64,000 bases of DNA, taken from NCBI GenBank assembly GCA_040880705.1, contig JBBDHU010000006.1, forward strand, positions 422,832-486,831, given 5' to 3'. Position 1 is the stretch's first letter, and the number at the start of each line of letters is the position of its first letter. This DNA comes from Actinomycetota bacterium. GTDB lineage: Bacteria; Actinomycetota; UBA4738; JBBDHU01. The notes beneath the pieces were generated by a model that was not told where the DNA came from, did not search any database, and was given only the letters and a program-made list of their open reading frames with translations. Both the position numbers and the translations under genes were made by a program. Positions 23,903 through 62,113 of this stretch are shown in pieces.

Positions 23903-23980
23903 CTTTAGATTCGCCTTCCGGCCTACGATATACGGGTGATCCGACGTCGCGAACCGCACCACCGAGTCTCTGGGCTGTCG

Positions 23981-39332: not shown

Positions 39333-39385
39333 GCAGTCTAACTCGGCGTCCCTTTTTCAATTTGCTCCGATATAGTCCCTCGGTC

Positions 39386-40837: not shown

Positions 40838-40849
40838 CAGGACGACCTA

Positions 40850-41040
40850 GCCGCCGCTCGCCGACCGGTGGCCGGCCGGCCCCCCTCTCTCCGACAGGTT
40901 CTGCGCGGCATTGACGAGACCCACATGGGTGAAGGCCCGAGGGAAGTCACCCAAGAGGCGCTTCCCTTGCCGGTCCTTCCGACGAGCGCGGCGGAACGCG
41001 CGTCCTCGATGAGTCCCTAGTTCTCGATACGCAATGGCAC
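40850..41040 (-). pseudogene. remnant of the 3' end of a glycoside hydrolase family 15-like (glucoamylase/trehalase-type) gene
   Basis: The minus-strand translation ...KRLLGDFPRAFTHVGLVNAAQNLSERGG* resembles the conserved GH15 C-terminal motif (GNFPQAFSHxGLINAA). The frame breaks about 20 codons upstream. The body of the gene is absent, and the sulfotransferase gene begins at 41116. Confidence 0.3.
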
Positions 41041-41115
41041 GAACGCCGATTCTCTCCTCACGGTCTTACTGAGTCCAGCTCTTTGGCGATACATAGACGC
41101 CGCTAGACTTCCAGC

Positions 41116-42087
41116 GTGACGTCTTCACCGGTCTTCGTTGTTGGGTGTCCTCGATCGGGGACAACACTTGTCCGGCTGATGCTAGACGCGCATCCCGATC
41201 TCGCGATCCCGCCGGAGTCTCACTTCATCCCGCTGGCTTGGCGTGTTCGTCGCCGGTACGAAGGACCGAACGGCTTCAACGCCGAACTTCTTGCAAGGCA
41301 GATCATGCACGGCCATCGGTTCCGCGAATGGGAGCTCCCGGAGGAGGCGGTGTGGCGGCAGCTGGAGACCTTGGAGCGCCCCGATTTCACGTCGGTTATC
41401 GAAGCCTTCTTCGTGGCCTATTCGGAGTTCCAGGGAAAGCCGAAGTGGGGAGACAAGACCCCTAACTATTCCGCGGATATGCCGCTATTAGCGACCCTGT
41501 GGCCCGATGCGCGGTTCGTTCATGTAGTTCGAGACGGTCGGAATGTGTCGGCTTCGCTGCTGGAAATCCCGCGACCCAGAATGAATATCACTGAGGCGGC
41601 GCAGATGTGGTCGGAGAGGGTCAAGAAGGGGGCGCAAGACGGTCTGTCGCTCGGAGACAGGTATCTGGAAATCCGGTACGAGGATCTTCTGGCAGACGCT
41701 TCCCACATACTCGCACTCGTCTGCGACCACGTGGATTTGGATTTCCGACCCGAGATGCTCGAATTCAGTCGCAGCGCGCCGTCGTCAATCCCCACGCGAT
41801 CTTGGGAGGACTATCACCGGAACCTCGCCAAGCCGCTAACGGTAACGAGGGACTGGCGCGCCTCACTGGCGGCCGCTCAAGTCGCCGCCATAGAGGCGGT
41901 CGCGGGTAATGAGCTCACCGAGTTCGGCTATGAGAGGCATTTCGAAATCGTGCCATTTCATGTGCGGGTGAAGGCGCGTCTCACCGTTCTTCTGAACAAG
42001 GTCATGCACCTGGGATGGAAAATCCGCATTACGATCACGACGCGCTTCCACCCGAATTTCATACCGCCGCCCCGGCGCTGGCTATAA
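41116..42087 (+). CDS. sulfotransferase family protein (PAPS-dependent, Stf-like), paralog 1
   Basis: GTG start. 5'-PSB loop VFVVGCPRSGTTLVRLML and 3'-PB motif VRDGRNVSASL are present. The protein is collinear with the ORFs at 49604 and 53915 (LDxHPDLAIPPES, GDKTP). Confidence 0.75.
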   Translation: MTSSPVFVVGCPRSGTTLVRLMLDAHPDLAIPPESHFIPLAWRVRRRYEGPNGFNAELLARQIMHGHRFREWELPEEAVWRQLETLERPDFTSVIEAFFVAYSEFQGKPKWGDKTPNYSADMPLLATLWPDARFVHVVRDGRNVSASLLEIPRPRMNITEAAQMWSERVKKGAQDGLSLGDRYLEIRYEDLLADASHILALVCDHVDLDFRPEMLEFSRSAPSSIPTRSWEDYHRNLAKPLTVTRDWRASLAAAQVAAIEAVAGNELTEFGYERHFEIVPFHVRVKARLTVLLNKVMHLGWKIRITITTRFHPNFIPPPRRWL

Positions 42088-42108
42088 CGGAACTCCAATC
42101 GAATTATG

Positions 42109-42192
42109 TGCCCGGGGAGGGATTCGAACCCTCACGCCCCGAAGGGCAGGCGCTTTTAAGGCGCCGTCGTCTACCGTTTCCGACACCCGGGC
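42109..42192 (-). tRNA. tRNA-Leu (anticodon TAA)
   Basis: The minus strand reads GCCCGGGTGTCGGAAACGGTAGACGACGGCGCCTTAAAAGCGCCTGCCCTTCGGGGCGTGAGGGTTCGAATCCCTCCCCGGGCA. It has a 7-bp acceptor stem, an anticodon loop CUUAAAA, a long variable arm and T-loop GGTTCGAATCC, and is 84 nt. No CCA is encoded. Confidence 0.85.
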
Positions 42193-42215
42193 CTGGCGGG
42201 TGCTTCGAATAGATC

Positions 42216-43196
42216 CTAGGCCCGCTGAGCCCATGGGCCCGCTCGCTCCGCGAACCATTCAACGGTCATTCGTAGGCCCTCCTCAAAGGAGAACTTGGGC
42301 CGGTACCCCAGAACTTCCTCAGCCTTGCTGATATCGGCCTGGCTCGTTCGTATCTCGCCGACCCTCGGCGGTTCTCGCTGCGGTTCTAAGTGGTCTCCGG
42401 GAACCAGTCCCTGGATCGTTTGAAGCAAGTCGTTGACGGAGTGACGGCCGTTGTACGCCACGTTGATGACTTTCCCTAAGGCTTTCTCCCCGGCCTCCGC
42501 GGCCAGGAGGTTTGCAGCGACCACGTCGCCGACGAAAGTGAAATCGCGGGCTTGCTCGCCATCCCCGTATATAGTCGCGGGCTCGTCATCCATCGTCGCG
42601 GAAATGAAACGGGGAACGACAGCCGCGTACTCTGCCGTCGGGTTCTGATTCGGGCCGAACACATTGAAGTATCGAAGCGAAACGGTGGCCAGCCCGAAAG
42701 AGTGATGGAAAGCGGAGGCATAGGCTTCCCCGGCAAGCTTGGAGACGCCATAGGGAGACAGTGGATGTGTGGGAAGGTCCTCGGACACTGGCATTCGTTC
42801 GGCGTTTCCGTAAACCGAGGAGGAAGACGCAAATACGACACGCTCGACGTGCTCGTCACGAGCCGCCATGAGTACGTTCAGCGTGCCGGTGACATTAGCC
42901 ATATGTGTCGCACGAGGATCTTTGACCGACCGGGCAACGGAAGGAATCGCAGCTTGATGAAACGCAGCCTTGACGTCGCGCATGGCCTCTAGAACCGTCG
43001 CGGCATCTCGAACGTCCCCGTTCATGAACTGAACCTGCTCCGACGAGAACTGCGCCAGATTCTCCGTCCTTCCAGTAGACAGGTCATCCAGCACACGGAC
43101 ACGATCGCCTCGTTCCACCAATGCTTGGACGAGGTTCGAACCGATGAAGCCCGCCCCTCCGGTGACGAGGTGTAGACCGCGCGAACCTACGACCAA
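42216..43196 (-). CDS. NAD-dependent epimerase/dehydratase (UDP-sugar 4-epimerase-like, short-chain dehydrogenase/reductase)
   Basis: N-terminal Rossmann motif VTGGAGFIGSNLV, a catalytic YxxxK (PYGVSKLAGE) and a 326-aa length. Confidence 0.85.
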   Translation of the reverse strand: MVVGSRGLHLVTGGAGFIGSNLVQALVERGDRVRVLDDLSTGRTENLAQFSSEQVQFMNGDVRDAATVLEAMRDVKAAFHQAAIPSVARSVKDPRATHMANVTGTLNVLMAARDEHVERVVFASSSSVYGNAERMPVSEDLPTHPLSPYGVSKLAGEAYASAFHHSFGLATVSLRYFNVFGPNQNPTAEYAAVVPRFISATMDDEPATIYGDGEQARDFTFVGDVVAANLLAAEAGEKALGKVINVAYNGRHSVNDLLQTIQGLVPGDHLEPQREPPRVGEIRTSQADISKAEEVLGYRPKFSFEEGLRMTVEWFAERAGPWAQRA

Positions 43197-43211
43197 GACG
43201 GGGCCAATCTC

Positions 43212-45128
43212 CTAGTCTTCGTCCGCCGGAACTTCAAGGAGATCCGCGAGCGTTTCATCCGTAACGGCGCCCGGAGCTGGATGGTAAGTGGAAACAGTCT
43301 CCTGAAGAAGGGCCCGGATCCTTGCGGGATTCCCTTCCGCCGCGGCTTCCGAAAGCAGCGTCAGGTTGCGCTCCAGTGAGTCGGGGTCGGGCTCAGCGCC
43401 GATCCCTGCGACGAAAATCTTCTCTTCAACCGTCGCAACGGTGCCGGCCTCCGCCAGGACAATCTCTTCCTTCATTTTCTCTCCCGGTCGAGCACCAGTG
43501 AACTGGATGGGCACGTCGACGTCCGGCTCGAGCCCCGAGAGGCGGATCAGCGCCTCCGCCAGATCGACGACACGAACCGGGTCTCCCATGTCGAGGGTGA
43601 AGACCTCTCCCCCCCGGCCTAGGGAGGCGGCCCTCAGAATAAGCCTGGCGGCCTCCGTCACGGTCATGACGAATCTCTCCATCGAGGGGTCCGTCACCGT
43701 TATGGGTCCCCCCCGCCGGATCTGTTCCTCCAGAATCGGGAGTAGGCTGCCCCGGCTGCCCAGGACGTTTCCAAATCTGACGGCGACGAACCTTGTGGCG
43801 CTCGACTCGTCAAACCTGTGAACGATCATTTCGGCAACCCTCTTCGACGCTCCCATGACCGAAGTGGGATTCACTGCCTTATCCGTCGAGATGAGAACGA
43901 AGCTCTCGCTCCCCGACTCCGCCGCCGCTTCCGCCATCGCCGCGGTTCCAAGGATGTTGGCGGAGACGGCTTCTTGCGGGTGCGACTCCATCATCGGCAC
44001 ATGTTTATAGGCCGCCGCGTGGAAGACGAGCTGCGGGCGAAAGGTGCCGAAGACCTGCCGCAATCTATCCCGATTCCTGACGTCGCCTACAACTGGAAAC
44101 ACGGGAACGCGGGGTGCGGTGCGCCTCAGGTCGAGTTCGAGACCGAAGAGTCTGGTCTCGTCCTTTTCGAAGAGGACCATCCGGCCCGGCTCGAACTGTG
44201 AGATCTGTCTCGAGAGCTCTGCGCCGACAGAGCCGGCCGCTCCGGTAATAAGGACGGTGGTTCCATACAGATACGATCCAACGGGTCCCATGTCGATGTT
44301 CACGGGTTCCCGCATGAGGAGGTCCTCCACGTTCACCTCCCGGACGGACGAGAGAGTTATGCGACCCTCCAACATCGCCTCGACGCTCGGGAGGATTCGG
44401 ATTCCCTGAACCCCTGCCGTGCGAGCGGCAACGACGACCTCGCGAATAACCGCTCCGGATGCCGACGGCATCGCCACGATCACTTCGTTTACCTTCTCCT
44501 CCGCGATGATCCGCGGCATCTGATCCCGGCCCCCGCGAATGTGGACGCCATGCAGATAGTTCCCGAACTTGACAGGATCGTCGTCGATCACGCCCACGAC
44601 CTTGTAACCACGCCGCGAGTACAGGAGCTCACGGACGAGCTGCTCGCCGGAATGCCCGCCGCCGACCAGGAGCACGCGGACGGAGTCCTCGTTGTGGTCT
44701 CGGGAGGTCAGAACCTGATGGATCCTCCGGCCCATGCGCACTCCGCCCACACCGATCAGCGTGAGGAGGAAGTCGATCGGCAAGATCGAGCGCGGAAGCG
44801 ACGGGAGGCCGAAGTTGCCACCTAACAGATAGGCAAGGGTTCCCCAGGCCAGCGTTCCAACGATGGTTGCCAGTCCCACATTGATCATGTCCCGCGCGCC
44901 GACGTAGCGCCAAGTCAGTCGATAAAGGCGGAACGCGGCGTTCGCGATGAACTTCGGGCCTATCGCAATCAGAAGAAAGGCTGCGATCGCTCCCCAATAC
45001 TTGGGAGGAATGTCCCCATCGAATCGAATGACGAAGGCTCCGTACATAGAGGCGGTGAAGACCAGGTAGTCGCAAGCAAGGAAAAAGAGCACGCGTTTTC
45101 TGTTCGTCGGGTTGAGAAGCTGACTCAT
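43212..45128 (-). CDS. membrane-bound polysaccharide biosynthesis protein CapD/PglF/WbpM family (UDP-N-acetylglucosamine 4,6-dehydratase)
   Basis: 4 N-terminal TM helices, a linker Rossmann region (VLLVGGGHSGEQL) and a catalytic SDR domain (VLITGAAGSVGAEL...AYKHV). Start placed at ATG 45128 (MSQLLNP), which overlaps the upstream stop in an ATGA. Confidence 0.85.
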   Translation of the reverse strand: MSQLLNPTNRKRVLFFLACDYLVFTASMYGAFVIRFDGDIPPKYWGAIAAFLLIAIGPKFIANAAFRLYRLTWRYVGARDMINVGLATIVGTLAWGTLAYLLGGNFGLPSLPRSILPIDFLLTLIGVGGVRMGRRIHQVLTSRDHNEDSVRVLLVGGGHSGEQLVRELLYSRRGYKVVGVIDDDPVKFGNYLHGVHIRGGRDQMPRIIAEEKVNEVIVAMPSASGAVIREVVVAARTAGVQGIRILPSVEAMLEGRITLSSVREVNVEDLLMREPVNIDMGPVGSYLYGTTVLITGAAGSVGAELSRQISQFEPGRMVLFEKDETRLFGLELDLRRTAPRVPVFPVVGDVRNRDRLRQVFGTFRPQLVFHAAAYKHVPMMESHPQEAVSANILGTAAMAEAAAESGSESFVLISTDKAVNPTSVMGASKRVAEMIVHRFDESSATRFVAVRFGNVLGSRGSLLPILEEQIRRGGPITVTDPSMERFVMTVTEAARLILRAASLGRGGEVFTLDMGDPVRVVDLAEALIRLSGLEPDVDVPIQFTGARPGEKMKEEIVLAEAGTVATVEEKIFVAGIGAEPDPDSLERNLTLLSEAAAEGNPARIRALLQETVSTYHPAPGAVTDETLADLLEVPADED

Positions 45129-46318
45129 GCGGCCGCCTCGCCCAATCCCGACCGCAGCGCGTCGCACACCCTGGCGACCTCGGTCCTCGACAGGCCCCCG
45201 TATAGAGGAACGATGACATTGCGCGCCGCGGCGTCGTCCGTGACGGGGAGAGGGCCAGGCGCGAGGTGTGGTCTGACCGCGTACGGGGGCTGGCGATGCA
45301 CGGGTGGATCGAAGTAGGCTTTCGACTCGATTCCCTTCGCGTTGAGATGCAGAACGACTTTGTCGCGGTCGACTTCCTTCGACACCAGGAGGAACTCAAC
45401 AAACCACGACGGCTTTGCCCATGAAGCCGCGCGTGGGGTGGAGACGCCCTCGACTCCGGCCAGTTCTTCCTGATACCACGACACGACCCGGCTCCGCCGT
45501 TCGAGGATCTCATCTACCCGGCGCATCTGCGCGACGCCCAGGGCCGCGGACAACTCGTCGAGCCTGTAGTTGTAGCCGATTCTCGTGTGATGCAGCCAGG
45601 GGTCACCCGAGCGACGGCCCTGATTGCGCAAGCTTCTGATTCGCTCCTCGATGTCTGGATCAGTCCCGGTTGCCATTCCTCCTTCACCGGTCGTGATCTG
45701 CTTGTTCGGATAAAAACCGTACACGGTGATCTTTGCACCGGTCCCCGCATGAACCCACGCATCGGACCTTTGAAATTGCGAGCCCAGCGCCTCGCAGGAG
45801 TCGCTCACTACTGGGATCGAAGCGGGAGCCGCGATTTCAATGATCTCGTCGAGCTTCGCCGGATGCCCGAAGATGTCGACGGGCATGACTGCGGCAACTC
45901 GACGTCCCGTATTGGGATCGTGGAGGCCGTCCTCAGCCTCCTTACAGCTGTCGAGATATTGACGAAGCGCCGATGGCGAGAGACAAAGCGAATCGGGATC
46001 CACGTCGAGAAAGACAGGCTCGGCTCCTTCATAGGACAGCGCATTGGCCGCAGCGATGAAGGAAAGGGAGGAGGTGACCGCACAATCCTCGGGTCCGATG
46101 GACAAGGCTCTCACGGCAATGTGGAGAGCCGCGGTGCCACTCGAAACGGCGGCCGCCCAGGGACTCCCCACGAAACCTGCGAAAAGCCGCTCGAACTCGC
46201 CCGTCTTTGGACCCAACGCCAGCCGGCCACCGCGCAACGCGCCGAGCACCTCCTCCTCCTCGGCCGTTCCGAGGTCGGGCCTGGCAAGCGGTATCGGAGG
46301 ATCATTGTCGTTTTTCAT
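45125..46318 (-). CDS. DegT/DnrJ/EryC1/StrS-family aminotransferase (sugar 4-aminotransferase, PglE/WbpE-like)
   Basis: Region FAGFVGSPWAAAVSSGTAALHIA..., a PLP-lysine region (YPNKQITTGEGGMATGTD) and an NYRLDELSAALG motif. Length is 397 aa. Confidence 0.85.
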   Translation of the reverse strand: MKNDNDPPIPLARPDLGTAEEEEVLGALRGGRLALGPKTGEFERLFAGFVGSPWAAAVSSGTAALHIAVRALSIGPEDCAVTSSLSFIAAANALSYEGAEPVFLDVDPDSLCLSPSALRQYLDSCKEAEDGLHDPNTGRRVAAVMPVDIFGHPAKLDEIIEIAAPASIPVVSDSCEALGSQFQRSDAWVHAGTGAKITVYGFYPNKQITTGEGGMATGTDPDIEERIRSLRNQGRRSGDPWLHHTRIGYNYRLDELSAALGVAQMRRVDEILERRSRVVSWYQEELAGVEGVSTPRAASWAKPSWFVEFLLVSKEVDRDKVVLHLNAKGIESKAYFDPPVHRQPPYAVRPHLAPGPLPVTDDAAARNVIVPLYGGLSRTEVARVCDALRSGLGEAAA

Positions 46319-46401
46319 CGGCGCCCCGAAATGGTGTCGTGAGACTGCAGGATAGCCGGTCGAGCGTGCTGAATCTCTCTGTTCCCCCGGTTCGGCATTG
46401 C

Positions 46402-47538
46402 CTAGCCGAGCACATCCCGGTAGAGGCTCTCCAGTTCCATCGTCGTGCGATGAATGTCGAAGCGGCCGGAAGCGAGGGCAGCGCGCTTGGCCATGCTCGC
46501 CGCCATCGCCGGATCGGCCATCATTCTCAAGACTCCCTCGGCGAGCGCCTCCGAATTCGCCGGGTCAACCAACCACGCGTCCTCCCCGTGACGCAGAGTC
46601 TCCTCGATCGCCGGAATGCGCGTCGCCACTATTGGTCCGCCTACCGCCATCGCCTCGAGGAGAGCGTTTCCTTGTCCCTCCCACAGCGAGGGAAAGACGA
46701 AGACGTCGCATCTCGAGAGCAAAGAAGGCACATCGCTCCGAATCCCGAGGAATGTAACGCTCTTCCCCAGAGGTCTCGCACGCTGCTCGAGGACCGGGCG
46801 CGAATAGCCGTCGCCCGCTATCAGCAGGACGGCGCCCGGATACTCCGCAAGTATCTTCGGCATCGCGTCGATCAGATACCGGTGGCCCTTCTGGGGAGCC
46901 AGCCTTCCGACGGACAGGATCGACGGCCGCCCGGGGTTCTCGATCGCGGGATGAGGATCCTCCGCCGCCCGTCTTGCAAGTTCTTCCAACGGCTGGCCTC
47001 GCGCGACGACCGAGAACCTGGACCTATCCCACGAGCGCCCTCGAATCGGGTTCTTTGCCGCAGCTTGAGAGATCGCCACAAAGCGATCCACCAGGAAACG
47101 ACCGGTCAGCTCGTCCAACAACGCCACAACTTGAGCCTTGCGGGCCGTGACCCGCGGCAACTCAGCCTGGTCGCGACCGTGAGGATCCGCATTGAGGACA
47201 TGAGAGATAACTTTCACCCGGGCAATGCGTCCGGCAATGCGTCCGGCGATCGATGACCACACCACCTGTGTATGGATGGCGTCAAACCGACCGCGTCGCA
47301 GAAGCCGGACCAGCCGCGGTACTTGCAGCAACGCCCTGGGCCCCCGGCCGGACTCGAGCGCGTGAACCGGAATGCCGAGCGCTTCGATGTCTCTTCGGAG
47401 AGTCATCGGCTCCCACAATGACGCTACCTCGCCGTCGATGTAGTCGCGATTCAAGAACCGCAGCGTTAGGACAAGCCCTCGTTCCGCCCCGCCAATGCCG
47501 AGGCTATCTACGAGAAAGAGAATGCGCCGGGTAATCAC
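46402..47538 (-). CDS. glycosyltransferase family 4
   Basis: N-terminus LVDSLGIGGAER and the C-terminal E-x7-E region (FVFPSLWEGQGNALLEAMAVGGPIVAT) are typical of GT4 retaining GT-B enzymes. Confidence 0.8.
   Translation of the reverse strand: MITRRILFLVDSLGIGGAERGLVLTLRFLNRDYIDGEVASLWEPMTLRRDIEALGIPVHALESGRGPRALLQVPRLVRLLRRGRFDAIHTQVVWSSIAGRIAGRIARVKVISHVLNADPHGRDQAELPRVTARKAQVVALLDELTGRFLVDRFVAISQAAAKNPIRGRSWDRSRFSVVARGQPLEELARRAAEDPHPAIENPGRPSILSVGRLAPQKGHRYLIDAMPKILAEYPGAVLLIAGDGYSRPVLEQRARPLGKSVTFLGIRSDVPSLLSRCDVFVFPSLWEGQGNALLEAMAVGGPIVATRIPAIEETLRHGEDAWLVDPANSEALAEGVLRMMADPAMAASMAKRAALASGRFDIHRTTMELESLYRDVLG
47221..47244 (-). repeat. 2 tandem copies of a 12-bp unit (ggcaatgcgtcc), in frame inside the GT4 gene; it encodes AGRIAGRI
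   Basis: Read directly from the sequence at 47221-47232 and 47233-47244. It is a second example of a short in-frame tandem duplication in this window. Confidence 0.85.
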
Positions 47539-47587
47539 GGGAATCTATCACGCATAATTCGAGCCTCCTGCGTCGTAAGGTAGGCGT

Positions 47588-48787
47588 ATGACGGCAGAAG
47601 CGCCCCGTGTAGCCGACGTCGTTCCATCTCTCAAGCTCCGCGGCGCCGAGGTTTTCGTCCAACAGCTCGAGAGCGTTCTCCGTGACAAATACAACTTTCG
47701 TCTGTTCACGCTCTACAACGAAGGCAATCCGCTTCCGGTTGGTGGGCGGCACCTGGACATCAGCCGCGGTGTCTCACAGGGGCCGGGTCGCAGGCTGCGA
47801 GCCGCCCTTGACCTCCGTCGCCGGGTGACCGCATTCGGTCCCCGCGTCATCCATGTACGAGGAGGCGATCCATTGCGCCTGTGTGTCCTCGCAGGCCTTC
47901 ACCGGATAGCCCCACTCGTTTATGTACGAATTTCGGAGGTGCCATCGAACCTACGGACACCACTCAGAACGCTGTCCATCCGCGCGGCCTACGCGCGGGT
48001 GTCCGTCTTTGTAGCCGTCAGTGAATCACTTCGGCGAGAGATGGTCGAGGTGTTCGGGATACCGCCCGAGCGCATAGAGGTCATCCCGACGGGGAGGCTC
48101 GGTCCCCCCTTGCCGTCGTCCGAGGAGACCTCAACAATCCGAGACGAGGTCGGCGCGAGGCCGGGCGGTCCGCTCGTTTCCTGGGTTGGTCGCCTGTCCG
48201 CAGAAAAGAACCCCGAAGCCGCACTGGCCGTTGCTCGTCATCTGGAGAAGCTCGCCCCAGAGGCGACACTGGTTGTCGTCGGGGATGGGCCGCTCGAGCA
48301 AACCATCCGAGCCCGGGCGGGCAGCAACGTTACGTTTGCAGGGGCCCGCCCCGATGCCGCCCGGATCATCGCCGCATCGGACATCTTGCTTTCAACGAGT
48401 GCCCACGAGGGTCTGCCGGGCGTCGTCGTCGAGGCGTTACTCTCCGGAGTTCCGGTAGTGGCCAATGATGTCGGCGGGATCGGCGAAGCGATCACGGATG
48501 GCGAGACCGGCCTTCTCGTGCCCGCGAGCAGCCGCGAGGCCTTGGCGCGGGCCGTGGTACGAATCGCGCATGATCCCGCCCTCCGGGCTCGCATGGCCGA
48601 AAAGGCGAGGCGTTCCGCCCAACGATTTGAGATGGGCACGGTCTCCGAGGAATACGACCTTCTGTATCGCAAGCTTGGCGTCCTCGCTAGCGGCGAGGAC
48701 CAACGCTTAACGCATACTCGGAGGCCTCCGCCACGGACGGACGCAACGAGCGAGCCAGATGCCAAAGATTCGCAGCCTCCGGCCTGA
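47588..48787 (+). CDS. glycosyltransferase family 4 (with a Pro/Thr/Asp-rich C-terminal tail)
   Basis: GT4 C-terminal motif (LSTSAHEGLPGVVVEALLSGVPVVANDVGGIGE). The tail RPPPRTDATSEPDAKDSQPPA overlaps the convergent GT2 gene. Confidence 0.75.
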   Translation: MTAEAPRVADVVPSLKLRGAEVFVQQLESVLRDKYNFRLFTLYNEGNPLPVGGRHLDISRGVSQGPGRRLRAALDLRRRVTAFGPRVIHVRGGDPLRLCVLAGLHRIAPLVYVRISEVPSNLRTPLRTLSIRAAYARVSVFVAVSESLRREMVEVFGIPPERIEVIPTGRLGPPLPSSEETSTIRDEVGARPGGPLVSWVGRLSAEKNPEAALAVARHLEKLAPEATLVVVGDGPLEQTIRARAGSNVTFAGARPDAARIIAASDILLSTSAHEGLPGVVVEALLSGVPVVANDVGGIGEAITDGETGLLVPASSREALARAVVRIAHDPALRARMAEKARRSAQRFEMGTVSEEYDLLYRKLGVLASGEDQRLTHTRRPPPRTDATSEPDAKDSQPPA

Positions 48788-49532
48788 TCCTGAGAGACCG
48801 CAGCAGCGCCGATCGAGCAAGCCTTTGATCACCGAGTCGGTTGGCCATGAGACCAACCCTTTTCCAAAGAAAGGCAGTCGCCCGCGGATGCGCGGTGAAG
48901 TAGCCCGAGTATTCGTCCAGGAGCATCAACCTGCACCTGATGCGCGAGCGAAGATCCGTGTACTTTCGGGGACCACTCGCCCCCCGGAACATGTAACCGA
49001 CCTGTGGAACGGTTGCCACGCGGTGTTCCCGCGCGAGTCGGAGCCACCACTCGATATCCTCCGCCGCGGCGTATCTTGGATCGAACTTCGGCGCGATCCT
49101 CGCTTCGAGCGCCGTCCGGCCGACGTGCGGGGCCATTCCGTCAAGGATCGTGTCGTAAACGTTGCCTTCCAGGATCCTTCCTCGCCGGGGGTTGGCCCAG
49201 CAAACGGCAATGGGAGCGCGTTCGAGTCCCTCCAGGGCGATCTCCAATCGCCTCTCAGTGAACACGTCGTCGTCGTCGAGAAACGCGAGGAAGCGGCCTC
49301 TCGCGCCATCGAGGCCCGTGTTTCGCGCGGCCGACGGCCCGCCGTTGTTCTCTCTTCGGACTAGCTTGAGACGCGGGTCATCCGGGACGTTCACCGGTTC
49401 GGGGCTCGCATCATCGACGACTATGCACTCGAAATCCTGAATGCTCTGATTGAGTAGCGATTCAATCGCGGTGCGAAGATACACAGGACGTCCGTGAGTC
49501 GGAATGATTATGCTGAATAGCGGCGTCGCCAC
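48687..49532 (-). CDS. glycosyltransferase family 2
   Basis: N-terminus FSIIIPTHGRPVYLRTAIESLLNQS and the VVDDASPEP / DDDD motifs are GT2 (GT-A, DxD) signatures. Confidence 0.75.
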   Translation of the reverse strand: MATPLFSIIIPTHGRPVYLRTAIESLLNQSIQDFECIVVDDASPEPVNVPDDPRLKLVRRENNGGPSAARNTGLDGARGRFLAFLDDDDVFTERRLEIALEGLERAPIAVCWANPRRGRILEGNVYDTILDGMAPHVGRTALEARIAPKFDPRYAAAEDIEWWLRLAREHRVATVPQVGYMFRGASGPRKYTDLRSRIRCRLMLLDEYSGYFTAHPRATAFLWKRVGLMANRLGDQRLARSALLRSLRIRPEAANLWHLARSLRPSVAEASEYALSVGPRR

Positions 49533-49603
49533 GAGGCCATGATAGTGGGAAACGTGCTCTCACGATCTTCTCTCACGGCCAGGCCCTTTGCTAGTTTGTT
49601 GGC

Positions 49604-50593
49604 GTGCCGGATCTTGCGCCTTTCCCGTTCATAGTCGGTGCCGAGCGATCGGGTACGACTCTTCTTAGGGTGATGCTCGATCAGCATCCCGACCTGGCCA
49701 TCCCACCGGAGTCCTACTTTCCCGTCTCCATGCGTCCACGACGGGTAGCAGGGGATAAAGACCCCTTCGACGGGGAACGGTTTACGAACAACCTGCTGGT
49801 TCATCCATGGTTTCAAAAATGGAAGCTCGACGCGTCCGCCGTGCTTTCGGCAATGGAAAGGCCGGGTCACATCGACTACCCGGAGGCGATTCGCCGCGTT
49901 TATGGAGCCTATGCCGAATCTCGAGGGAAGCGAGACTATGGCGACAAAACACCCTCCTTTGTGCTTCACATCGACTTGTTATCAGCCATGTTCCCCGAGA
50001 GCCTCTTCGTGCACATCATTAGGGACGGGAGGGATGTCGTCGCCTCCATCCTGGAACGCCGGTGGGGATCCGGACACCTGACGACAGGCGCGGCGACGTG
50101 GGCCGGGCGGGTTGATCGCGGCCGAGCCTGCGGATTGAAACTCGGCGCCGACCGGTACAGGGAAGTCATGTACGAAAGCCTTGTGTCGGAACCCCGTCGG
50201 ATTCTCGAGGAGATTTGCGATTTCCTTGGCATTGCGATGGTCCCGGAGATGTTGAACTACTACGAACACTTTGACGAGCTCGTACCTCAAGCCGAACGCG
50301 AACAGTTTCGCCACCTGTCGCGCCCGCCAACGGCCGGATTACGCGATTGGCGGCGCGACATGCGTCCTTCCGATGTCGCGACCATCGAGGCCGTCGCCGG
50401 CCGGACTCTTTCTGAACTCGGCTACGAGAGAGCATTTTCGGATCCTCCGACCGGTGCTCGTATCCGCGCGGCAGCCGGCGCTCAGCTCATGCGCGCACGT
50501 CGCACCAAGCGCAGGATCAAGAAGGTGCTTCGGCGTGCGATCCCACAGCGAAAACGAGGGAACGCGAGCAAGCGGATCACGAGGGAAGCCTAG
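49604..50593 (+). CDS. sulfotransferase family protein (PAPS-dependent, Stf-like), paralog 2
   Basis: FPFIVGAERSGTTLLRVMLDQHPDLAIPPESYF (5'-PSB) and IIRDGRDVVASI (3'-PB) are present, with a basic C-terminal tail. Confidence 0.75.
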   Translation: MPDLAPFPFIVGAERSGTTLLRVMLDQHPDLAIPPESYFPVSMRPRRVAGDKDPFDGERFTNNLLVHPWFQKWKLDASAVLSAMERPGHIDYPEAIRRVYGAYAESRGKRDYGDKTPSFVLHIDLLSAMFPESLFVHIIRDGRDVVASILERRWGSGHLTTGAATWAGRVDRGRACGLKLGADRYREVMYESLVSEPRRILEEICDFLGIAMVPEMLNYYEHFDELVPQAEREQFRHLSRPPTAGLRDWRRDMRPSDVATIEAVAGRTLSELGYERAFSDPPTGARIRAAAGAQLMRARRTKRRIKKVLRRAIPQRKRGNASKRITREA

Positions 50594-51384
50594 GGAGCCG
50601 GAGTCTCGCTCCCCTGGACCTCTCTTCTGTAGAGATCAATGACCTCGTCCGTCGGTCCATCCGCCCTTACGACGGCACGGTCGAGGTAAACGACTCGAGA
50701 ACACACCCTCTTCACGTCGGCCAGCATGTGGGATACGAATACGAGGGTTTGTCCCCGAGCGCGCATTTCGTCCAATCGCCGCAAACATCTCTGCTGGAAA
50801 GACTCATCGCCAACGGCCAGTACTTCGTCAACAAGAAGCACGTCCGGGTCGAGGTGGACTGCCACAGAGAACCCCAGTCGGACCTCCATGCCGGACGAAT
50901 AACGCTTGACCGGCGTGTCGATGAACCGGCCCAGTTCGGCGAACTCGACGATCTCCTCGAAGCGGCGGCGGATCTCCTTGCGAGAGAGTCCTAGGATCGT
51001 GCCGTACAGGAAAAGGTTCTCTCTGCCCGTCAGCTCGGGGTGAATCCCGCTTCGGATCTCGATCAGTGAACCTATCCGGCCTCGTGTTTTGACGGTTCCG
51101 GACCAGGGCTCGGTTATGCGTGACATCAGCTTAAGCGTCGTCGACTTCCCGCTGCCGTTCGGACCGATGATCCCAACTGCCTCTCCGTCCCGAACATCGA
51201 AGGAAGCGTCCGCAAGCGCCCAAATCTTCGTGCTAGGCACATTCGAGGAGCGACGGAGCCCCGCACGCTCAAGCGCAGTCGAGAACTCTCCGGCCAAGGT
51301 GCGACTCTTCCTGCGCCGATTTCCCAAGCGGTAACGCTTCCACACCCTGTCAAAGTGGATGATCACATCTCCTTCAGATGACAT
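50590..51384 (-). CDS. wzt: ABC transporter ATP-binding protein of a polysaccharide exporter (Wzt/TagH/KpsT-like)
   Basis: Walker A GIIGPNGSGKSTTLK, ABC signature YSSGMEVRLGF and Walker B VLLVDEVLAVGD. Start placed at ATG 51384 (MSSEGDVIIHFDRV). The track's longer N-terminus is Pro/Gly-rich and overlaps wzm. Confidence 0.8.
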   Translation of the reverse strand: MSSEGDVIIHFDRVWKRYRLGNRRRKSRTLAGEFSTALERAGLRRSSNVPSTKIWALADASFDVRDGEAVGIIGPNGSGKSTTLKLMSRITEPWSGTVKTRGRIGSLIEIRSGIHPELTGRENLFLYGTILGLSRKEIRRRFEEIVEFAELGRFIDTPVKRYSSGMEVRLGFSVAVHLDPDVLLVDEVLAVGDESFQQRCLRRLDEMRARGQTLVFVSHMLADVKRVCSRVVYLDRAVVRADGPTDEVIDLYRREVQGSETPAP

Positions 51385-52423
51385 CGGCGAAGGTCCTGTC
51401 GATCCGCTTGTACCACCAGTAAGCCAGCCCGAGCCCGACAGTGGACACGGCCGCGGCCGAACCAAGTGGTCCCCACAAGGGCCATTCCCCGTGGGCAAGG
51501 ATGCGCCTGAAACCGTCCATGATCGGCGCGAGGGGATTCAGATAGACATACGCGTCCGCCAGAGAGCCGTGCAGCACCCCTTCAGGTCCGATCATCTTCG
51601 CCAGGGGGTATGCAACCGGGGTCGCAAAGAGCGCAATCTGGAGGAGCAGCGGTATCCCGTATCGCGTGTCTCGGAAGTAGACCGTTACCGCAGAGAACAC
51701 GAGCGTCACGGCGAGCGAAAACATCGTCAGGATCAGGAGGATGAGCGGATAGGCTATCCATTCGACCTGGGGCGAGAAGCCGTAGGCAATGAGCATGCCG
51801 AACAAAATCACCGTAGAAACGCCGAAATCGACTCCCGAGGAAAGAACGGACGACGCCGGAAAAATCTCCCGCGGCATGTAGATCTTTCTAATGATTGGGG
51901 CATTCGTGATGATGCTGCTGGTCCCCGTCGTGACCGCGCTGGAGAACAATGACCAGGGGACGAGCGCCGTGTAGGAAAAAATGGGATATGGGAGACCCTC
52001 GCTCCCGACTTGGGCGATCCTTCCGAACACCACCGAGAAGATCACCATTAATGTCAGTGGTTGAAGTACAGCCCATACCGCCCCGAGCGCCGCTTGCTTG
52101 TATCTGACCCTAAGGTCCCTCTCCACGAACGTGAGGACGATCTCCCACCGATGAACCAGCTCGGCCAACGCCGCGCGAAGAGAAAGCGGGTAGCGCGTCC
52201 TCGGGGGCGGTTCCAGATCCAGGTCCTCGGTTACACGCGGCCTTACGCGCGGAATCGCCCTGTGGAGACGCTCGGCTTCTTCGAATTCTTCTTGGGTTGC
52301 CGCCTCGAAGAAACCGTCACTCCCCTTGGCCGCGCGCTTCACCATCGGTGATTGCAAATGGAGGTCAGACTCGTCGGCTTCCCCGGTTTCGGGAACGGGG
52401 GGCTCACGTTCCTCGGGCTTCAC
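51374..52423 (-). CDS. wzm: ABC-2 type polysaccharide export permease (Wzm/TagG-like)
   Basis: 6 TM helices and the ABC-2 motif region (LVHRWEIVLTFVERDLRVRYKQAALGAVWAVLQP). The true start may lie 25-30 codons inside (MVKRAAKG...). The acidic N-terminal stretch is uncertain. Confidence 0.75.
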   Translation of the reverse strand: MKPEEREPPVPETGEADESDLHLQSPMVKRAAKGSDGFFEAATQEEFEEAERLHRAIPRVRPRVTEDLDLEPPPRTRYPLSLRAALAELVHRWEIVLTFVERDLRVRYKQAALGAVWAVLQPLTLMVIFSVVFGRIAQVGSEGLPYPIFSYTALVPWSLFSSAVTTGTSSIITNAPIIRKIYMPREIFPASSVLSSGVDFGVSTVILFGMLIAYGFSPQVEWIAYPLILLILTMFSLAVTLVFSAVTVYFRDTRYGIPLLLQIALFATPVAYPLAKMIGPEGVLHGSLADAYVYLNPLAPIMDGFRRILAHGEWPLWGPLGSAAAVSTVGLGLAYWWYKRIDRTFADVI

Positions 52424-52470
52424 GGACGCATTCTACAGAAGGCTACGTGGCGGCCGTATGCTGTCTGGCG

Positions 52471-53277
52471 ATGTCGAGGGTAGTAGCCGTCATCGTCACC
52501 TACAAACGCCCGGAGTTGCTAAGACGCTGCGTCGAGGCGGCATTGCGGCAAACCCGCCGGCCAGATCTCGTTCTGATTGTGGACAACGACCGGATGGCTC
52601 GGCAGGCACTTGATGATTACTTGCCGAACGGCAAGGCACGTCTGGAAGTCATCGAGACAGGCAGTAACTTGGGGCCCGCCGGTGGCTACGAGATCGGCTT
52701 CCGCCTCGCCCTGGAACGAGGGGCGGACAAAATATGGACCCTGGACGACGACGACGAGCCAATGCCCGATTGTCTCGAGAAGTTGCTCGCCGCCGGCGGG
52801 GCCATAGTCACCCCCCTCGAAATTAGGCCCTCCGGATGGGAGGGATTTGCCGGCTCATGGAACGGTGGCCTCATTGACTCGGAGGTGGTCCGCCGTGTCG
52901 GTCCTCCCCGCCGCGAGCTGTTCTTCTGGGCGGAGGACACCGAGTTCTTCCTCCGGGCTAAGCTGGCCGGTTTCCTGCGCCAACGCGAACCGGCGGCAAT
53001 CGTCAAGCACGCCCAGCCCGACGCCCGCCGGCCTGGGGTTGCCAGGAATTGGCGGCTCTACTACGAGATCCGCAACACGCTCTACGTACGCCTCAAGGTC
53101 AGGGACGCCTCACCGAGGCAGGCGTATCGAGCCTCCCTCTCGGTCCTGGGGAAGCCCCTTCGCATCCTGCTGTTCGAGCCTGGGAAACGCGACTCCATGC
53201 GGCTGTGGTGGTGGGGAGTCAGGGACTTTCTTCGGGGACGATTGGGGAAGGTCGTGGACCCCGAGGATCACCGGTAA
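52471..53277 (+). CDS. glycosyltransferase family 2 (GT-A fold)
   Basis: Start placed at ATG 52471 (MSRVVAVIVTYKRPELLRRCVEAAL). The DxD motif is WTLDDDDEP and a GlfT/rhamnosyltransferase-like organisation follows. The track ORF extends 58 codons upstream. Confidence 0.7.
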   Translation: MSRVVAVIVTYKRPELLRRCVEAALRQTRRPDLVLIVDNDRMARQALDDYLPNGKARLEVIETGSNLGPAGGYEIGFRLALERGADKIWTLDDDDEPMPDCLEKLLAAGGAIVTPLEIRPSGWEGFAGSWNGGLIDSEVVRRVGPPRRELFFWAEDTEFFLRAKLAGFLRQREPAAIVKHAQPDARRPGVARNWRLYYEIRNTLYVRLKVRDASPRQAYRASLSVLGKPLRILLFEPGKRDSMRLWWWGVRDFLRGRLGKVVDPEDHR

Positions 53278-53353
53278 TCCCTCGGATGCGTGCTCGATGG
53301 GTTGATGTCCGCGGAAATCCGAGGCATAATCTGGCGGTCCGACGAGAAGGGGG

Positions 53354-53824
53354 ATGCACATGAGGCAACGCGCTGCTCTGGTTGTCGTAGCAGTCGCACT
53401 CTTCGCAATGGCGGCCTACGCACAACCGGCGTTGGCTGCCGTTATCGTTTGTGGAGGTGGGGACTGCATCGGGACATCTAGTCCCGACGACATCACCGGC
53501 ACAGACGGATACGACCGAATTGAAGGCCGCGCTGGGGGCGACACGATTAGTGCCCTCAACAGCTCGGACAAGGTCTTTGGCCAGCTGGGAGCCGACTGGA
53601 TGCACGGTGACGGCGGTCACGACAGGATGAGGGGTGGCGGCTCCGACGACACGATCTGGGGCGACGCCCAACACGACCGTGTCTGGGGCGGTCCAAACGA
53701 CGACACGTTGAACATGCAGGACGACAATTCGGACCCGGTAGTCAACGGAGGTAACGGGTACGACGTCTGCAACGTGGACGCAATCGACACGTGGAGCAAC
53801 TGCGAGGTCGTTAACGTCGCTTAG
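53354..53824 (+). CDS. small secreted calcium-binding repeat protein (RTX-like), paralogous in its N-terminal motif to the 39386 protein
   Basis: Signal peptide AALVVVAVALFAMAAYAQPALAA, then CGGGDCIGTSSPDDITGTDGYDRIEGRAGGDTI..GDGGHDRMRGGGSDDTIWGDAQHDRVWGGPNDD, which are GGxGxD repeats. The Cys-containing start C..GDC.G...ITGT.G.D.IEG is shared with the 39386 protein. Confidence 0.6.
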   Translation: MHMRQRAALVVVAVALFAMAAYAQPALAAVIVCGGGDCIGTSSPDDITGTDGYDRIEGRAGGDTISALNSSDKVFGQLGADWMHGDGGHDRMRGGGSDDTIWGDAQHDRVWGGPNDDTLNMQDDNSDPVVNGGNGYDVCNVDAIDTWSNCEVVNVA

Positions 53825-53830
53825 CTGAGG

Positions 53831-53882
53831 CTGCAAAAGCAAACGAAGCGGGGACGAGAGTCCCCGCTTCTTGCTTTTGCAG
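53831..53882 (+). terminator. long near-perfect hairpin (about 23-bp stem with a 2-nt bulge, 6-nt loop) immediately after the small RTX gene
   Basis: ctgcaaaagcaaacgaagcgggga cgagag tccccgcttcttgcttttgcag, read directly from the sequence. No T-tract follows on either strand, consistent with the U-tract-less terminators common in high-GC Actinobacteria. Confidence 0.45.
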
Positions 53883-53914
53883 GGTGACGAAGGTGGCCCG
53901 GATATACTCGCTCG

Positions 53915-54907
53915 ATGCCTTACGCGCGGTCATCGGGCCCACCTATTTTTGTCGTCGGATGTGGTCGCTCCGGGACCACGATGCTACGTCTGATGCTCGA
54001 TTCACATCCGGAGCTCGCCATCCCGGGCGAGTCGCAATTCATCCCGGCGATCTATAGGAATCGGGAACACTACGTTTCCGGCGGCCGCTTGGACGCCCGG
54101 CGAATGGCCCGCGACATCCTGGGGCGTAGGAATGTGCTGCGGTGGCGCGTGCCCAACGACGCAGTGTTCGATCGCATACGGGAGATATCGGAACCGGATA
54201 TCGCGGATGTGGTCGAGTCGGTGTTCATGGAATACGCGCTCGCTCGCGGAAAGACACGCTGGGGCGACAAGACGCCTCGACACGTGATGTGGATGGATCG
54301 ACTTTCCGACCTCTTCCCCTCGGCTCTATTCGTTCACGTGATCCGCGATGGCCGCGACGTATCGCTGTCCTATGCCGACAAACCGTGGGGGCCCAGAAAC
54401 GCTTGGGAATCTGCCCGCTTGTGGCGGCGCGCGATCACTGCCGGTTTGCGGGCCCGGGACCAGCTGGGAAGGGAGCGTTACCTTGAAGTCCGGTACGAGC
54501 GGCTTGTTTCGGACCCCGAGGCAACCGTCGGGGCAATCTGCGCGTTCGCCCGCCTAGACTTCCACGAATCCATGCTGGACTACTACAAAGACGCCTCGGA
54601 ACGACTCATGATCTCGGCGGAGCAGGTTCGTTTTCATGCCTCCTCGACGGCGCCACCGAGGATCGGAATTCGAGATTGGAGAACCCAGATGAGTGAGGGT
54701 GACGTTCGCGCGTTCGAGTCCGCGGCCGGGGAGGAACTCGGCCTCTTGGGATATGAGCGGCGGTACCCGAGCATGCCGGCACGGTCGAGGGCACTCTCCG
54801 CTGCCGTAATGCAGGGCCTAGAACTCCGGATTCTCGGATCTCGCCTCAAGGCCGCCCTGGCCCGAGGTTCGCACAGGGCCCACGGCTCAGCATCGGACGG
54901 CCCGTAG
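53915..54907 (+). CDS. sulfotransferase family protein (PAPS-dependent, Stf-like), paralog 3
   Basis: PIFVVGCGRSGTTMLRLMLDSHPELAIPGESQF (5'-PSB) and IRDGRDVSLSY (3'-PB) are present. The protein is collinear with the other two paralogs throughout. Confidence 0.75.
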   Translation: MPYARSSGPPIFVVGCGRSGTTMLRLMLDSHPELAIPGESQFIPAIYRNREHYVSGGRLDARRMARDILGRRNVLRWRVPNDAVFDRIREISEPDIADVVESVFMEYALARGKTRWGDKTPRHVMWMDRLSDLFPSALFVHVIRDGRDVSLSYADKPWGPRNAWESARLWRRAITAGLRARDQLGRERYLEVRYERLVSDPEATVGAICAFARLDFHESMLDYYKDASERLMISAEQVRFHASSTAPPRIGIRDWRTQMSEGDVRAFESAAGEELGLLGYERRYPSMPARSRALSAAVMQGLELRILGSRLKAALARGSHRAHGSASDGP

Positions 54908-54912
54908 AGGCG

Positions 54913-57058: not shown

Positions 57059-57069
57059 GGGCGAAAAGA

Positions 57070-58452: not shown

Positions 58453-58463
58453 AGGGCGCGGCC

Positions 58464-58829: not shown

Positions 58830-58933
58830 CTCTGCCTCCTAGTGCTCTGCCAAGCATCTTGCCTGCTCAGCGACCGGAAAGCTGAACTATCCCACCGGGC
58901 CGATGGGCCGTCAAATAAGCCGGGATTTCGGGC

Positions 58934-62109
<3,176 letters not shown>

Positions 62110-62113
<4 letters not shown>

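Follow-up and report, generated by a model that had tools for sequence, protein, structure and literature searches.

Between a leucine tRNA gene and the gene of a cyclophilin-type PPIase, the window (the whole 64-kb stretch of DNA analysed here) contains a 14-kb glycan biosynthesis cluster of the ABC-transporter type (Table 1). Its first part consists of an epimerase, a CapD/PseB-like 4,6-dehydratase, a DegT aminotransferase, two GT4 and one GT2 glycosyltransferases and the sulfotransferase ST2. These are followed by a Wzt-like ATPase, a Wzm-like permease, a second GT2, a small RTX-repeat protein, the sulfotransferase ST3 and an NDP-sugar dehydrogenase. Pfam identified the transporter pair (PF01061 permease and PF00005 ATPase), the best NCBIfam matches of which were TagH, galactan Wzt/RfbE and Wzm/RfbD. 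All of these were below the equivalog cut-offs, and no other protein of the cluster reached such a cut-off either. Within 42-56 kb, a priming phosphoglycosyl transferase was not recognised, and the N-terminus of CapD resembles only the membrane part of the EPS sugar transferases (positions 2-242 of the 445 of TIGR03025).

The third PF13469 sulfotransferase, ST1, lies beyond the tRNA gene, convergent with it and divergent from a GH15 pseudogene, psiGH15. ST1 shares 37-42% identity with ST2 and ST3. Its nearest non-self homologues, which are located within similar glycan clusters elsewhere, are only 54% identical, and in none of the relatives examined does such a gene adjoin the tRNA. An ABC-transporter pathway equipped with three sulfotransferases would presumably make a sulfated glycan.

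On the right-hand side, the 3' ends of the dehydrogenase and PPIase genes converge and overlap by 14 bp. The PPIase has an N-terminal extension, and its full-length orthologues follow Ppx in all relatives. A second PPIase of the window (PPIase_a, 34030-34542) was considered as the orthologue of the relatives' PPIase and rejected, since the extension aligned only with PPIase_b. The adjacent DUF501-Ppx/GppA fusion gene belongs to a conserved eno-DivIC-Ppx-PPIase block. On the left-hand side, both ARAGORN and a local Rfam run (RF00005, 50.2 bits for 42109-42192) confirmed the position of the tRNA between ST1 and the epimerase gene, as given in the first-pass annotation. An Rfam scan of the entire window at gathering thresholds gave no match, even to the tRNA, which we attribute to the filter. 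The 23-nt spacer in front of the tRNA holds a -10-like TATTCG, which aligns with TATCCT, TACCAT or TATTCT 5' of the tRNA in relatives and is a putative promoter element of the tRNA.

Table 1. Features of the glycan locus and its surroundings (window coordinates).
Feature	Coordinates	Strand	Basis or remark
psiGH15, GH15 pseudogene	40847..41040	-	tblastn and 7-sequence GH15 HMM on the six-frame window
psiGH15, C-terminal piece	40856..40975	-	HMM positions 557-596/604, i-E 1.4e-8
psiGH15, N-terminal piece	40948..41034	-	HMM positions 3-29, i-E 9e-4
Sulfotransferase ST1 (PF13469)	41116..42087	+	Pfam
tRNA-Leu(UAA)	42109-42192 (ARAGORN: 42108-42192)	-	ARAGORN tRNA-Leu(taa) and Rfam RF00005
Epimerase stop-tRNA spacer, 23 nt	42193..42215	-	Alignment of tRNA flanks, 10 loci
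ABC-transporter-type glycan biosynthesis cluster	42216..56319	mixed (.)	Pfam, NCBIfam, homologous clusters in the same interval of relatives
Epimerase	42216-43196	-	Cluster gene nearest the tRNA
Cyclophilin-type PPIase with N-terminal extension (PPIase_b)	56306..57058	-	Pfam; conserved right-hand flank
DUF501-Ppx/GppA fusion gene	57070..58452	-	Pfam and related loci

The pseudogene extends from a putative old GTG start (41040-41038) to a TAG stop (40849-40847). The N-terminal sequence is MPLRIEN*GLIED...SAALVG, the C-terminal one LLGDFPRAFTHVGLVNAA. An HMM of 7 annotated GH15 proteins matched two adjacent pieces, LRIEN*GLIEDARSAALVGRTGKGSASW and DRQGKRLLGDFPRAFTHVGLVNAAQNLSERGGPAGHRSAS, on one strand and in the right order, and these are the only matches in the window better than an E-value of about 1. 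About 27 N-terminal and 40 C-terminal codons, or some 67 codons of a GH15 protein of about 615 aa, are retained. Approximately 527 profile positions (about 1.6 kb; HMM positions 30-556) have no counterpart, and with them the catalytic (alpha/alpha)6 region has been lost entirely. The pieces lie in two different frames, with the deletion junction falling within their overlap at 40975-40948, and an in-frame TAG (41019-41017) replaces the conserved Tyr of the homologues (RIEDYGLIGD...). With the GH15 family (glucoamylase/trehalase, Pfam PF00723, the bacterial type of about 600 aa) psiGH15 shares the N-terminal RIEDYxLIGD..SAALV and the C-terminal LGNFPQAFSHxGLxNAA, and its identity to annotated plasmid-borne GH15 genes is 50-65%. 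Unlike members of the family, it has no catalytic region, is split over two frames and carries an internal stop, i.e. it is a dead gene.

The GH15 C-terminal motif LLGDFPRAFTHVGLVNAAQNL, which the first-pass annotation had pointed out on the minus strand (encoded at about 40960-40898), is borne out by this HMM match and by a tblastn search of 7.3 Gb of plasmid sequences. The motif fragment matched 158 records with a best E-value of 7e-7; among the 25 records listed, nearly all matches were inside genes annotated as GH15 or glucoamylase, and in both of the plasmid genes fetched the match was C-terminal. The N-terminal piece produced 19 plasmid matches, at least 14 of them in annotated GH15 genes, and in all five genes fetched the match was located at the very start of the CDS. 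In a tblastn search with a full-length Rhizobium GH15, the C-terminal piece was 60% identical to residues 564-598.

Could the resemblance to GH15 nevertheless be due to chance, or the stretch be a short functional ORF instead of a pseudogene? Pfam hmmscan of four translated remnant pieces, which are too short for its filters, returned nothing, and neither did phmmer of the remnant against the PDB; a word-indexed search of proteins for the remnant, reconstructed as 56 aa, gave one candidate and no match. An ORF of 35 codons initiated by TTG is also possible. However, one piece matches the start and another, independent one the end of GH15, with the order and strand of an intact gene, the plasmid matches are almost exclusively to annotated GH15 genes, the strand contains no ORF of 40 aa or longer, and a stop codon occupies the place of a conserved Tyr. 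We find this explanation scarcely credible. Separately, a GH15 consensus peptide was run against the PDB and discarded, its only matches being spurious ones to capsid proteins.

It had been proposed that the rest of the GH15 gene was gone and that the gene had been cut by the arrival of the glycan locus. Neither proposal agrees with the structure of the remnant. The N-terminal residues are still there in another frame, both termini are contiguous within 194 bp, and the loss is an internal deletion. Because both termini have been kept, nothing was inserted into psiGH15. Judging by its sequence, the GH15 gene decayed in place: a once-complete gene, convergent with an RTX gene and divergent from ST1, would have lost its interior and gained a stop. 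No intact GH15 gene was found near the tRNA in relatives by a tblastn search of GH15 proteins against the related loci. The two-ended relic is a clear case of gene death by internal deletion, and it also cautions that a terminal motif alone is poor ground for inferring an insertion.

The base composition distinguishes the locus only slightly. The first-pass annotation described 41116-56319 as an island of markedly lower GC between flanks of 68-70%. The region is indeed lower, with a GC content of 61.7% compared to 63.9% in the rest of the window, but the immediate flanks measure 65.2% (39341-41115) and 64.8% (56320-64000), and the difference is about 2 points rather than about 8. Equally low values are found elsewhere in the window (61.8% in 13-27 kb and 61.7% in 33-39.3 kb), and ST1 itself has 59.6%. 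The GC3 of the cluster genes is 0.715 versus 0.766 for those outside (Mann-Whitney p = 8e-5), a shift that is real yet small. With the 64-kb window as the reference, the composition-normalised tetranucleotide signature of the cluster stays inside the window's range. The lower GC3 may be left over from a foreign origin, although a reduced GC content is common in polysaccharide loci.

Comparative searches were anchored on the DUF501-Ppx/GppA gene. The PPIase/Ppx flank was found in at least 20 loci and the tRNA-Leu flank, with an orthologous tRNA-Leu(taa), in 16. The genomes compared are family- or order-level MAGs rather than strains, and all are distant (Ppx 59-77% and CapD 66-79% identical), the protein identity of even the closest relative being only about 77-79%. 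In nine related loci the gene order is Ppx-PPIase-tRNA-Leu with at most one small gene or a short gap between the PPIase and the tRNA. Five of these sites are empty, with 19-133 nt from the PPIase to tRNA-Leu(taa) (L005, L006, L090, L098 and L101), and the other four contain one small gene or a gap of 0.7-1.1 kb (L002, L003, L095 and L096). By comparison with these nine loci, which have no cluster, the cluster of the window is accessory, as the first-pass annotation had supposed.

A homologous cluster occupies this place in at least nine further loci. In most of them one end of the slot is visible. Both ends are visible only in L177, which is the only locus with all landmarks on a single contig and is rearranged. 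At the right-hand end, the PPIase gene is convergent with the dehydrogenase gene also in L099, L103 (73% identity) and L177 (71%), and in L004 a related cluster directly follows the PPIase (dehydrogenase 69% and ABC ATPase 75% identical). At the left-hand end, DegT-CapD-epimerase precedes tRNA-Leu(taa); the two adjoin in L168, L169 and L178/L179, whereas 2-5 kb of additional genes separate them in L170, L176 and L177. The epimerase-tRNA junction is kept in six other loci, the CapD proteins of which are 66-79% identical to that of the window. The content between the ends varies: an internal sulfatase of L168, L169, L170, L176 and L178 is absent from the window cluster, and L004, L170 and L176 have additional epimerase/GT4 and toxin-antitoxin genes. 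The sulfatase of the window (35253-36635) was tried as an orthologue of the sulfatase that follows the tRNA in L168 and was rejected, as tblastn gave no match above the thresholds (E <= 1e-8 and >80 bits). Both junctions of the cluster thus recur in distant relatives, which agrees with the first-pass opinion that the event is old.

The first-pass annotation explained the locus as a single island, 41116-56319, which integrated site-specifically at the tRNA-Leu, truncated GH15 on arrival and later lost its integrase. The nine relatives with empty PPIase-tRNA sites, the lower GC3 of the cluster and the presence of a GH15 remnant and a tRNA at the left edge are all in its favor. However, the insertion site of integrases that target tRNA genes is the 3' end. 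The main cluster is on the 5' side of the tRNA-Leu, the 3' end of which faces the opposite way, toward ST1 and psiGH15 alone. The 14-kb cluster is hence not an element immediately 3' of the tRNA and, because it is upstream, the tRNA is not its attachment site.

No signature of mobility was found. Pfam scans of the sizeable ORFs from 21.7 to 60 kb contained no integrase, transposase or recombinase; that no integrase or transposase is left had been stated before and holds by Pfam for 21.7-57 kb. The last 20-45 nt of the tRNA have no second copy in the 64 kb, even with up to 20% mismatch allowed, and this includes the surroundings of 56319, for which a search for direct repeats had been suggested. 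No exact k-mer of 13 nt or longer from the tRNA and its 60 nt on either side occurs elsewhere in the 64 kb, and a repeat search of 40.7-57.3 kb gave chance-sized pairs only and no att-like repeat. Furthermore, deeply diverged loci have the epimerase-tRNA and dehydrogenase/PPIase junctions in common, psiGH15 has both of its termini, and ST1 and the remaining cluster are on opposite sides of a synteny break. We therefore consider integration of the whole region at the tRNA very improbable and already largely refuted. The tRNA-Leu would rather be a bystander landmark with a -10-like element of its own.

The position of this break is defined by a DNA alignment with the closest relative, L168. The two tRNA-Leu genes differ by 4 mismatches in 85 nt, and all similarity is lost within 2 nt of the tRNA 3' end; therefore the variable side is that of ST1 and the GH15 remnant. 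The conserved block stops at the tRNA, and not at 41116, where the boundary of the island had been placed. Beyond it come ST1 and a region that is different in every relative examined. The island-like part may accordingly be the 3' side of the tRNA, namely ST1, psiGH15 (as decaying cargo or as a resident), an RTX protein, a phosphoesterase and genes further left, acquired through one or more integrations targeted to the tRNA 3' end, with the integrase and repeats since eroded. In addition to the abrupt loss of synteny, this would fit the low GC of ST1 and of 33-39.3 kb, which resembles that of the cluster, the presence of a pseudogene, and a break at 42140, within the tRNA, in two independent Logan contigs. 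On the other hand, neither an integrase or transposase nor a repeat of the tRNA 3' end was found in the window, the left boundary is undefined, and in relatives so distant a loss of synteny beside any gene is unsurprising. We regard this scenario as possible but doubtful.

The cluster might also be ancestral to the group and never have been inserted, the empty lineages having lost it by deletion. In a neighbor-joining tree of Ppx, the occupied loci are spread over three or more well-supported lineages, which do not form one group (window/L088, L099/L103 and L004). This distribution, the conservation of both junctions and the native-like tetranucleotide signature are consistent with an ancestral cluster. 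However, at least three clean deletions, each leaving the tRNA 19-133 nt from the PPIase, are needed, because in three independent clades, all with a bootstrap of 100, every member with a visible slot has an empty site. As the tree is unrooted and its deep nodes have bootstrap values below 40, parsimony cannot decide, and we would give an ancestral origin a modest, minority chance.

The explanation that we hold with good confidence is that 42216-56319 is a long-established accessory polysaccharide locus in a fixed slot, and that the decay of psiGH15 was a separate event. The slot is situated between tRNA-Leu(UAA) and the housekeeping block eno-DivIC-DUF501/Ppx-PPIase. Within this group of uncultured Actinomycetota it is empty, holds one small gene or holds a homologous glycan cluster with a variable middle and constant ends, the NDP-sugar dehydrogenase toward the PPIase and DegT-CapD-epimerase toward the tRNA. 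What lies 3' of the tRNA (ST1, psiGH15, the RTX protein, the phosphoesterase etc.) would be lineage-specific. The variation of the slot may have arisen by homologous recombination between the conserved flanks, or by an ancient gain with later losses. It is ordinary genome variation, not a fresh mobile island.

More tentatively, the PPIase/tRNA-Leu interval might be a dedicated cassette site, in which sulfated-glycan clusters are repeatedly captured, remodelled or lost by recombination between the end genes (dehydrogenase and DegT-CapD-epimerase), which are conserved. If so, the cells would possess a serotype-like variable sulfated surface polymer. In practical terms, annotation of the locus as a tRNA-integrated genomic island is unwarranted, and the GH15 fragment is no insertion scar. 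The Ppx-PPIase ... tRNA-Leu(UAA) interval can serve as an anchor for finding and comparing sulfotransferase-rich clusters in metagenomes. To our knowledge, bacterial sulfotransferase-rich surface-glycan loci of such a kind are poorly characterised.

Three known systems resemble the locus in part. Like tRNA-associated genomic islands, the cluster is located beside a tRNA, is absent in some relatives and has a modestly lower GC content, and the exact point at which synteny is lost is the tRNA 3' end. Unlike them, it is situated on the 5' side of the tRNA, lacks an integrase as well as a direct repeat of the tRNA 3' end, keeps its junctions over deep divergence and has a native-like oligonucleotide signature. 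In gene content, it is similar to Wzm/Wzt glycan clusters with PseB/LegC-type amino-sugar genes, with which it shares the Wzm-like permease, the Wzt/TagH-like ATPase, GT2 and GT4 glycosyltransferases, 4,6-dehydratase, aminotransferase, epimerase and NDP-sugar dehydrogenase. It differs from these clusters in its three PF13469 sulfotransferases and in that no priming phosphoglycosyl transferase was recognised inside it.

Variable surface-polysaccharide loci between conserved flanks are exemplified by the E. coli O-antigen locus (galF/gnd) and the pneumococcal cps locus (dexB/aliA). In contrast to these, the slot described here is fully empty in many relatives, one of its flanks is a tRNA gene, and the exchange of cassettes is only putative, the genomes compared being family- or order-level MAGs instead of strains. 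In other respects they are alike. The cluster sits in a fixed slot with conserved genes, PPIase and tRNA-Leu, on either side, its end genes are conserved while its content varies between relatives, its GC content is slightly lower, and it carries no mobility genes. In summary, it appears to be a textbook-style variable polysaccharide locus, here in a little-known group of Actinomycetota MAGs.

Our first anchor for related loci was the DUF501-Ppx fusion protein. The window matches contig JBBDTV010000014.1 of the NCBI MAG GCA_040904185.1 with full identity. The relatives of the window are all labelled Actinomycetota MAGs, and the order eno-DivIC-Ppx-PPIase is common to all related loci (Ppx 59-77% identical). 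In five of them (L005, L006, L090, L098 and L101), the slot between the PPIase gene and tRNA-Leu(taa) is empty, the tRNA following 19-133 nt after PPIase. This is the empty site that the first-pass annotation had proposed to look for. The slot is nearly empty in L002, L003, L095 and L096, where a single small gene or a gap of 0.7-1.1 kb separates PPIase from the tRNA. At the PPIase end of occupied slots, a convergent NDP-sugar dehydrogenase follows PPIase in L103 and L099 as it does in the window (73% identical in L103; 60% in L099, over a 42-aa fragment at a contig end), and L004 has a related cluster there (dehydrogenase 69%, ABC ATPase 75%, GT2 58% identical). With CapD as the second anchor, all loci with a CapD 66-79% identical to that of the window carried DegT-CapD-epimerase in the window's order and then tRNA-Leu(taa), either directly (L168, L169, L178/L179) or preceded by 2-5 kb of unrelated genes such as beta-lactamase and toxin-antitoxin (L170, L176, L177). 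Where L004 overlaps with L170 and L176, the loci are collinear, and the single rearranged contig of L177 contains the dehydrogenase, PPIase, Ppx, DegT-CapD-epimerase and the tRNA. Hence, the two junctions of the window's cluster are ancient and shared. The slot is empty, nearly empty, or home to a homologous cluster with a variable middle.

Features of the glycan region and its surroundings (window positions)
Feature	Position	Strand	Remark
Sulfatase	35253-36635	minus	5.5 kb past tRNA
RTX/HemolysinCabind repeat protein	39362-40837	plus	just left of GH15 remnant
GH15 pseudogene remnant, 194 bp	41040 (GTG) to 40847 (TAG)	minus	both ends of ~615-codon gene
ST1, PF13469 sulfotransferase	41116-42087	plus	neighbour of tRNA-Leu
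tRNA-Leu(taa)	42108-42192	minus	ARAGORN; sole tRNA found in window
NAD-dependent epimerase	42216-43196	minus	other neighbour of tRNA-Leu
CapD	43212-45167		second anchor
Small RTX repeat protein	53354-53824	plus	in cluster
NDP-sugar dehydrogenase	54913-56319	plus	3' end overlaps PPIase by 14 bp
PPIase	56306-57058	minus	convergent with dehydrogenase
DUF501-Ppx/GppA, 460 aa	57070-58452	minus	first anchor

Several details of these loci are worth recording. In L177 (JGI 3300086346, Ga0683582_0000002, 350-17820), Ppx-PPIase is flanked by the two ends of the cluster, the dehydrogenase on one side and DegT-CapD-epimerase on the other, which is consistent with an inversion that has its breakpoints within the cluster and upstream of Ppx. 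The dehydrogenase and PPIase genes are also convergent in L099 and L103, with a gap of ~30-50 bp. PIN/antitoxin pairs occur in or beside the glycan clusters of L170 (1762-2431), L177 (13017-13720) and L178 (1540-2754), and the window has none. DUF501 and Ppx/GppA are also fused in all closer relatives, where one tblastn HSP covers residues 1-460. L107, which is more distant, gives a match for each part in its own frame or segment, as though two genes were present there.

The Ppx NJ tree does not discriminate between repeated gain and repeated loss of the cluster. Bootstrap values of 100% were obtained for the pairs (window, L088) and (L099, L103) and for three further clades whose slots are empty wherever visible. 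All deeper nodes are below 40%, and the occupied lineages form no supported grouping.

The first-pass annotation had seen signs of an acquired island next to tRNA-Leu, a classic integration target, whose arrival may have disrupted a GH15 glycoside hydrolase gene. The tRNA does lie between the first sulfotransferase and the epimerase gene (RF00005, 50.2 bits at 42109-42192 in a local 500-nt Rfam scan, gathering score 29), and no integrase or transposase is present between 21.7 and 60 kb, as had been noted. However, the cluster lies 5' of the tRNA, and the tRNA 3' end, sought as a direct repeat, has no second copy in the window with up to 20% mismatch allowed. Together with the lack of an integrase or transposase, this argues against a tRNA-targeted island. 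No meaningful repeats pair the two cluster ends. A -10-like box ~10-14 nt upstream of tRNA-Leu is present both in the window and in the empty-site relatives, which suggests that the tRNA keeps its own promoter. The tRNA is better described as a bystander marking the synteny break. At gathering thresholds, an Rfam scan of the whole window returned zero families, missing even the tRNA, so whole-window Rfam negatives need caution.

In the closest relative, L168, the tRNA differs by 4 mismatches in 85 nt and all similarity is gone within 2 nt of its 3' end; the genes beyond that end are different in every relative. Hence, the potentially island-like, variable side is the one holding ST1 and the GH15 remnant, not the glycan cluster. 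The nearest non-self homologues of ST1 are 54% identical and located inside similar clusters elsewhere. ST1 and the two in-cluster sulfotransferases, ST2 and ST3, share 37-42% mutual identity and are old paralogues. A Logan contig (L084, SRR27977661) equals window 38198-42140; it is 99.97% identical and stops at 42140, within the tRNA gene. L085, a Logan contig from a second run (SRR27977663), corresponds to it in gene content and nearly in length. Such a break hints at co-occurring relatives or strains with a common tRNA that differ on one side.

The GH15 C-terminal motif was found on the minus strand exactly as originally quoted. The short piece had no match in Pfam and PDB searches, both of which are blind to so short a piece. 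A tblastn search of the motif against plasmids (7.3 Gb) returned 158 records (best E-value 7e-7), nearly all of those listed falling in genes with a GH15 or glucoamylase annotation; in both fetched genes, the match lay at the C-terminus. A full-length Rhizobium-plasmid GH15 protein gave two same-strand matches in the window: residues 564-598 with 40966-40862 (60% identity) and, in another frame, residues 4-30 (RIEDYGLIGNMLSAALVGKDGSIDWLC) with 41031-40945, where the window reads RIEN*GLIEDARSAALVGRTGKGSASW. This N-terminal fragment alone matched 19 plasmid records, at least 14 of them in annotated GH15 genes, and the very start of the CDS in five of five fetched genes. A profile of seven annotated GH15 proteins, searched against all six translated frames of the entire window, produced exactly two matches better than E ~1, at profile positions 557-596 of 604 (40975-40856, i-E 1.4e-8) and 3-29 (41034-40948, i-E 9e-4). 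The footprint therefore contains both gene ends, contrary to the claim that the rest of the gene is gone. The missing interior amounts to about 527 profile positions (~1.6 kb), a frame change falls at the junction (40975-40948), and a TAG at 41019-41017 replaces a conserved Tyr. In orientation, the former gene converged on the RTX-repeat gene and diverged from ST1 (start at 41116 or 41179). With both termini within 194 bp, the interior missing and no insertion in the gene, disruption by an arriving locus finds no support. The gene decayed through internal deletion, without any insertion, and the remnant is better described as an internally deleted pseudogene independent of the glycan locus.

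Composition gave a mixed picture. The GC content of 41116-56319 is 61.7% versus 63.9% in the remaining window, and per-gene GC3 is 0.715 in the cluster versus 0.766 (Mann-Whitney p = 8e-5), a real but small shift. However, the contrast was overstated, as GC in the adjoining flanks is 65.2% and 64.8%, not 68-70%. The 13-27 kb and 33-39.3 kb regions are equally low, and cluster windows do not stand out in their composition-normalised tetranucleotide signature (r = 0.88-0.92, window range 0.85-0.93; delta z-scores -1.7 to 0). The lowest-GC stretch of the window, 21771-25378 (57-61%), is compositionally more deviant than the cluster and contains TadE/TadG-like pseudopilin genes and a 480-aa protein without a Pfam match.

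By homology, the cluster has genes for an ABC exporter of the Wzm/Wzt type, four glycosyltransferases (two GT4, two GT2), a PseB/FnlA-like 4,6-dehydratase with a membrane N-terminus, a LegC/PseC-like aminotransferase, a TviC-like epimerase, an NDP-sugar dehydrogenase and three sulfotransferases. No cluster protein reached an equivalog cut-off. From this set of genes, the predicted product is an exported amino-sugar/uronic-acid glycan that is probably sulfated. One or two PF00884 sulfatases lie inside the homologous clusters of L086, L087, L168-L170, L176 and L178. The window's cluster has none, and its sulfatase is past the tRNA, so the functional sulfated-glycan region may straddle the tRNA. 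RTX-like ORFs are also present in L005 (downstream of the tRNA) and L094 (upstream of the Ppx gene), and L168 has a homologue of the small RTX protein beside its Wzm gene.

In summary, the individual features of the acquired-island account exist, but a tRNA-targeted arrival that cut GH15 is unsupported. The glycan cluster is better described as an old, accessory polysaccharide locus that occupies a conserved slot, and as such it adds a new case to a well-known type of genome variation.
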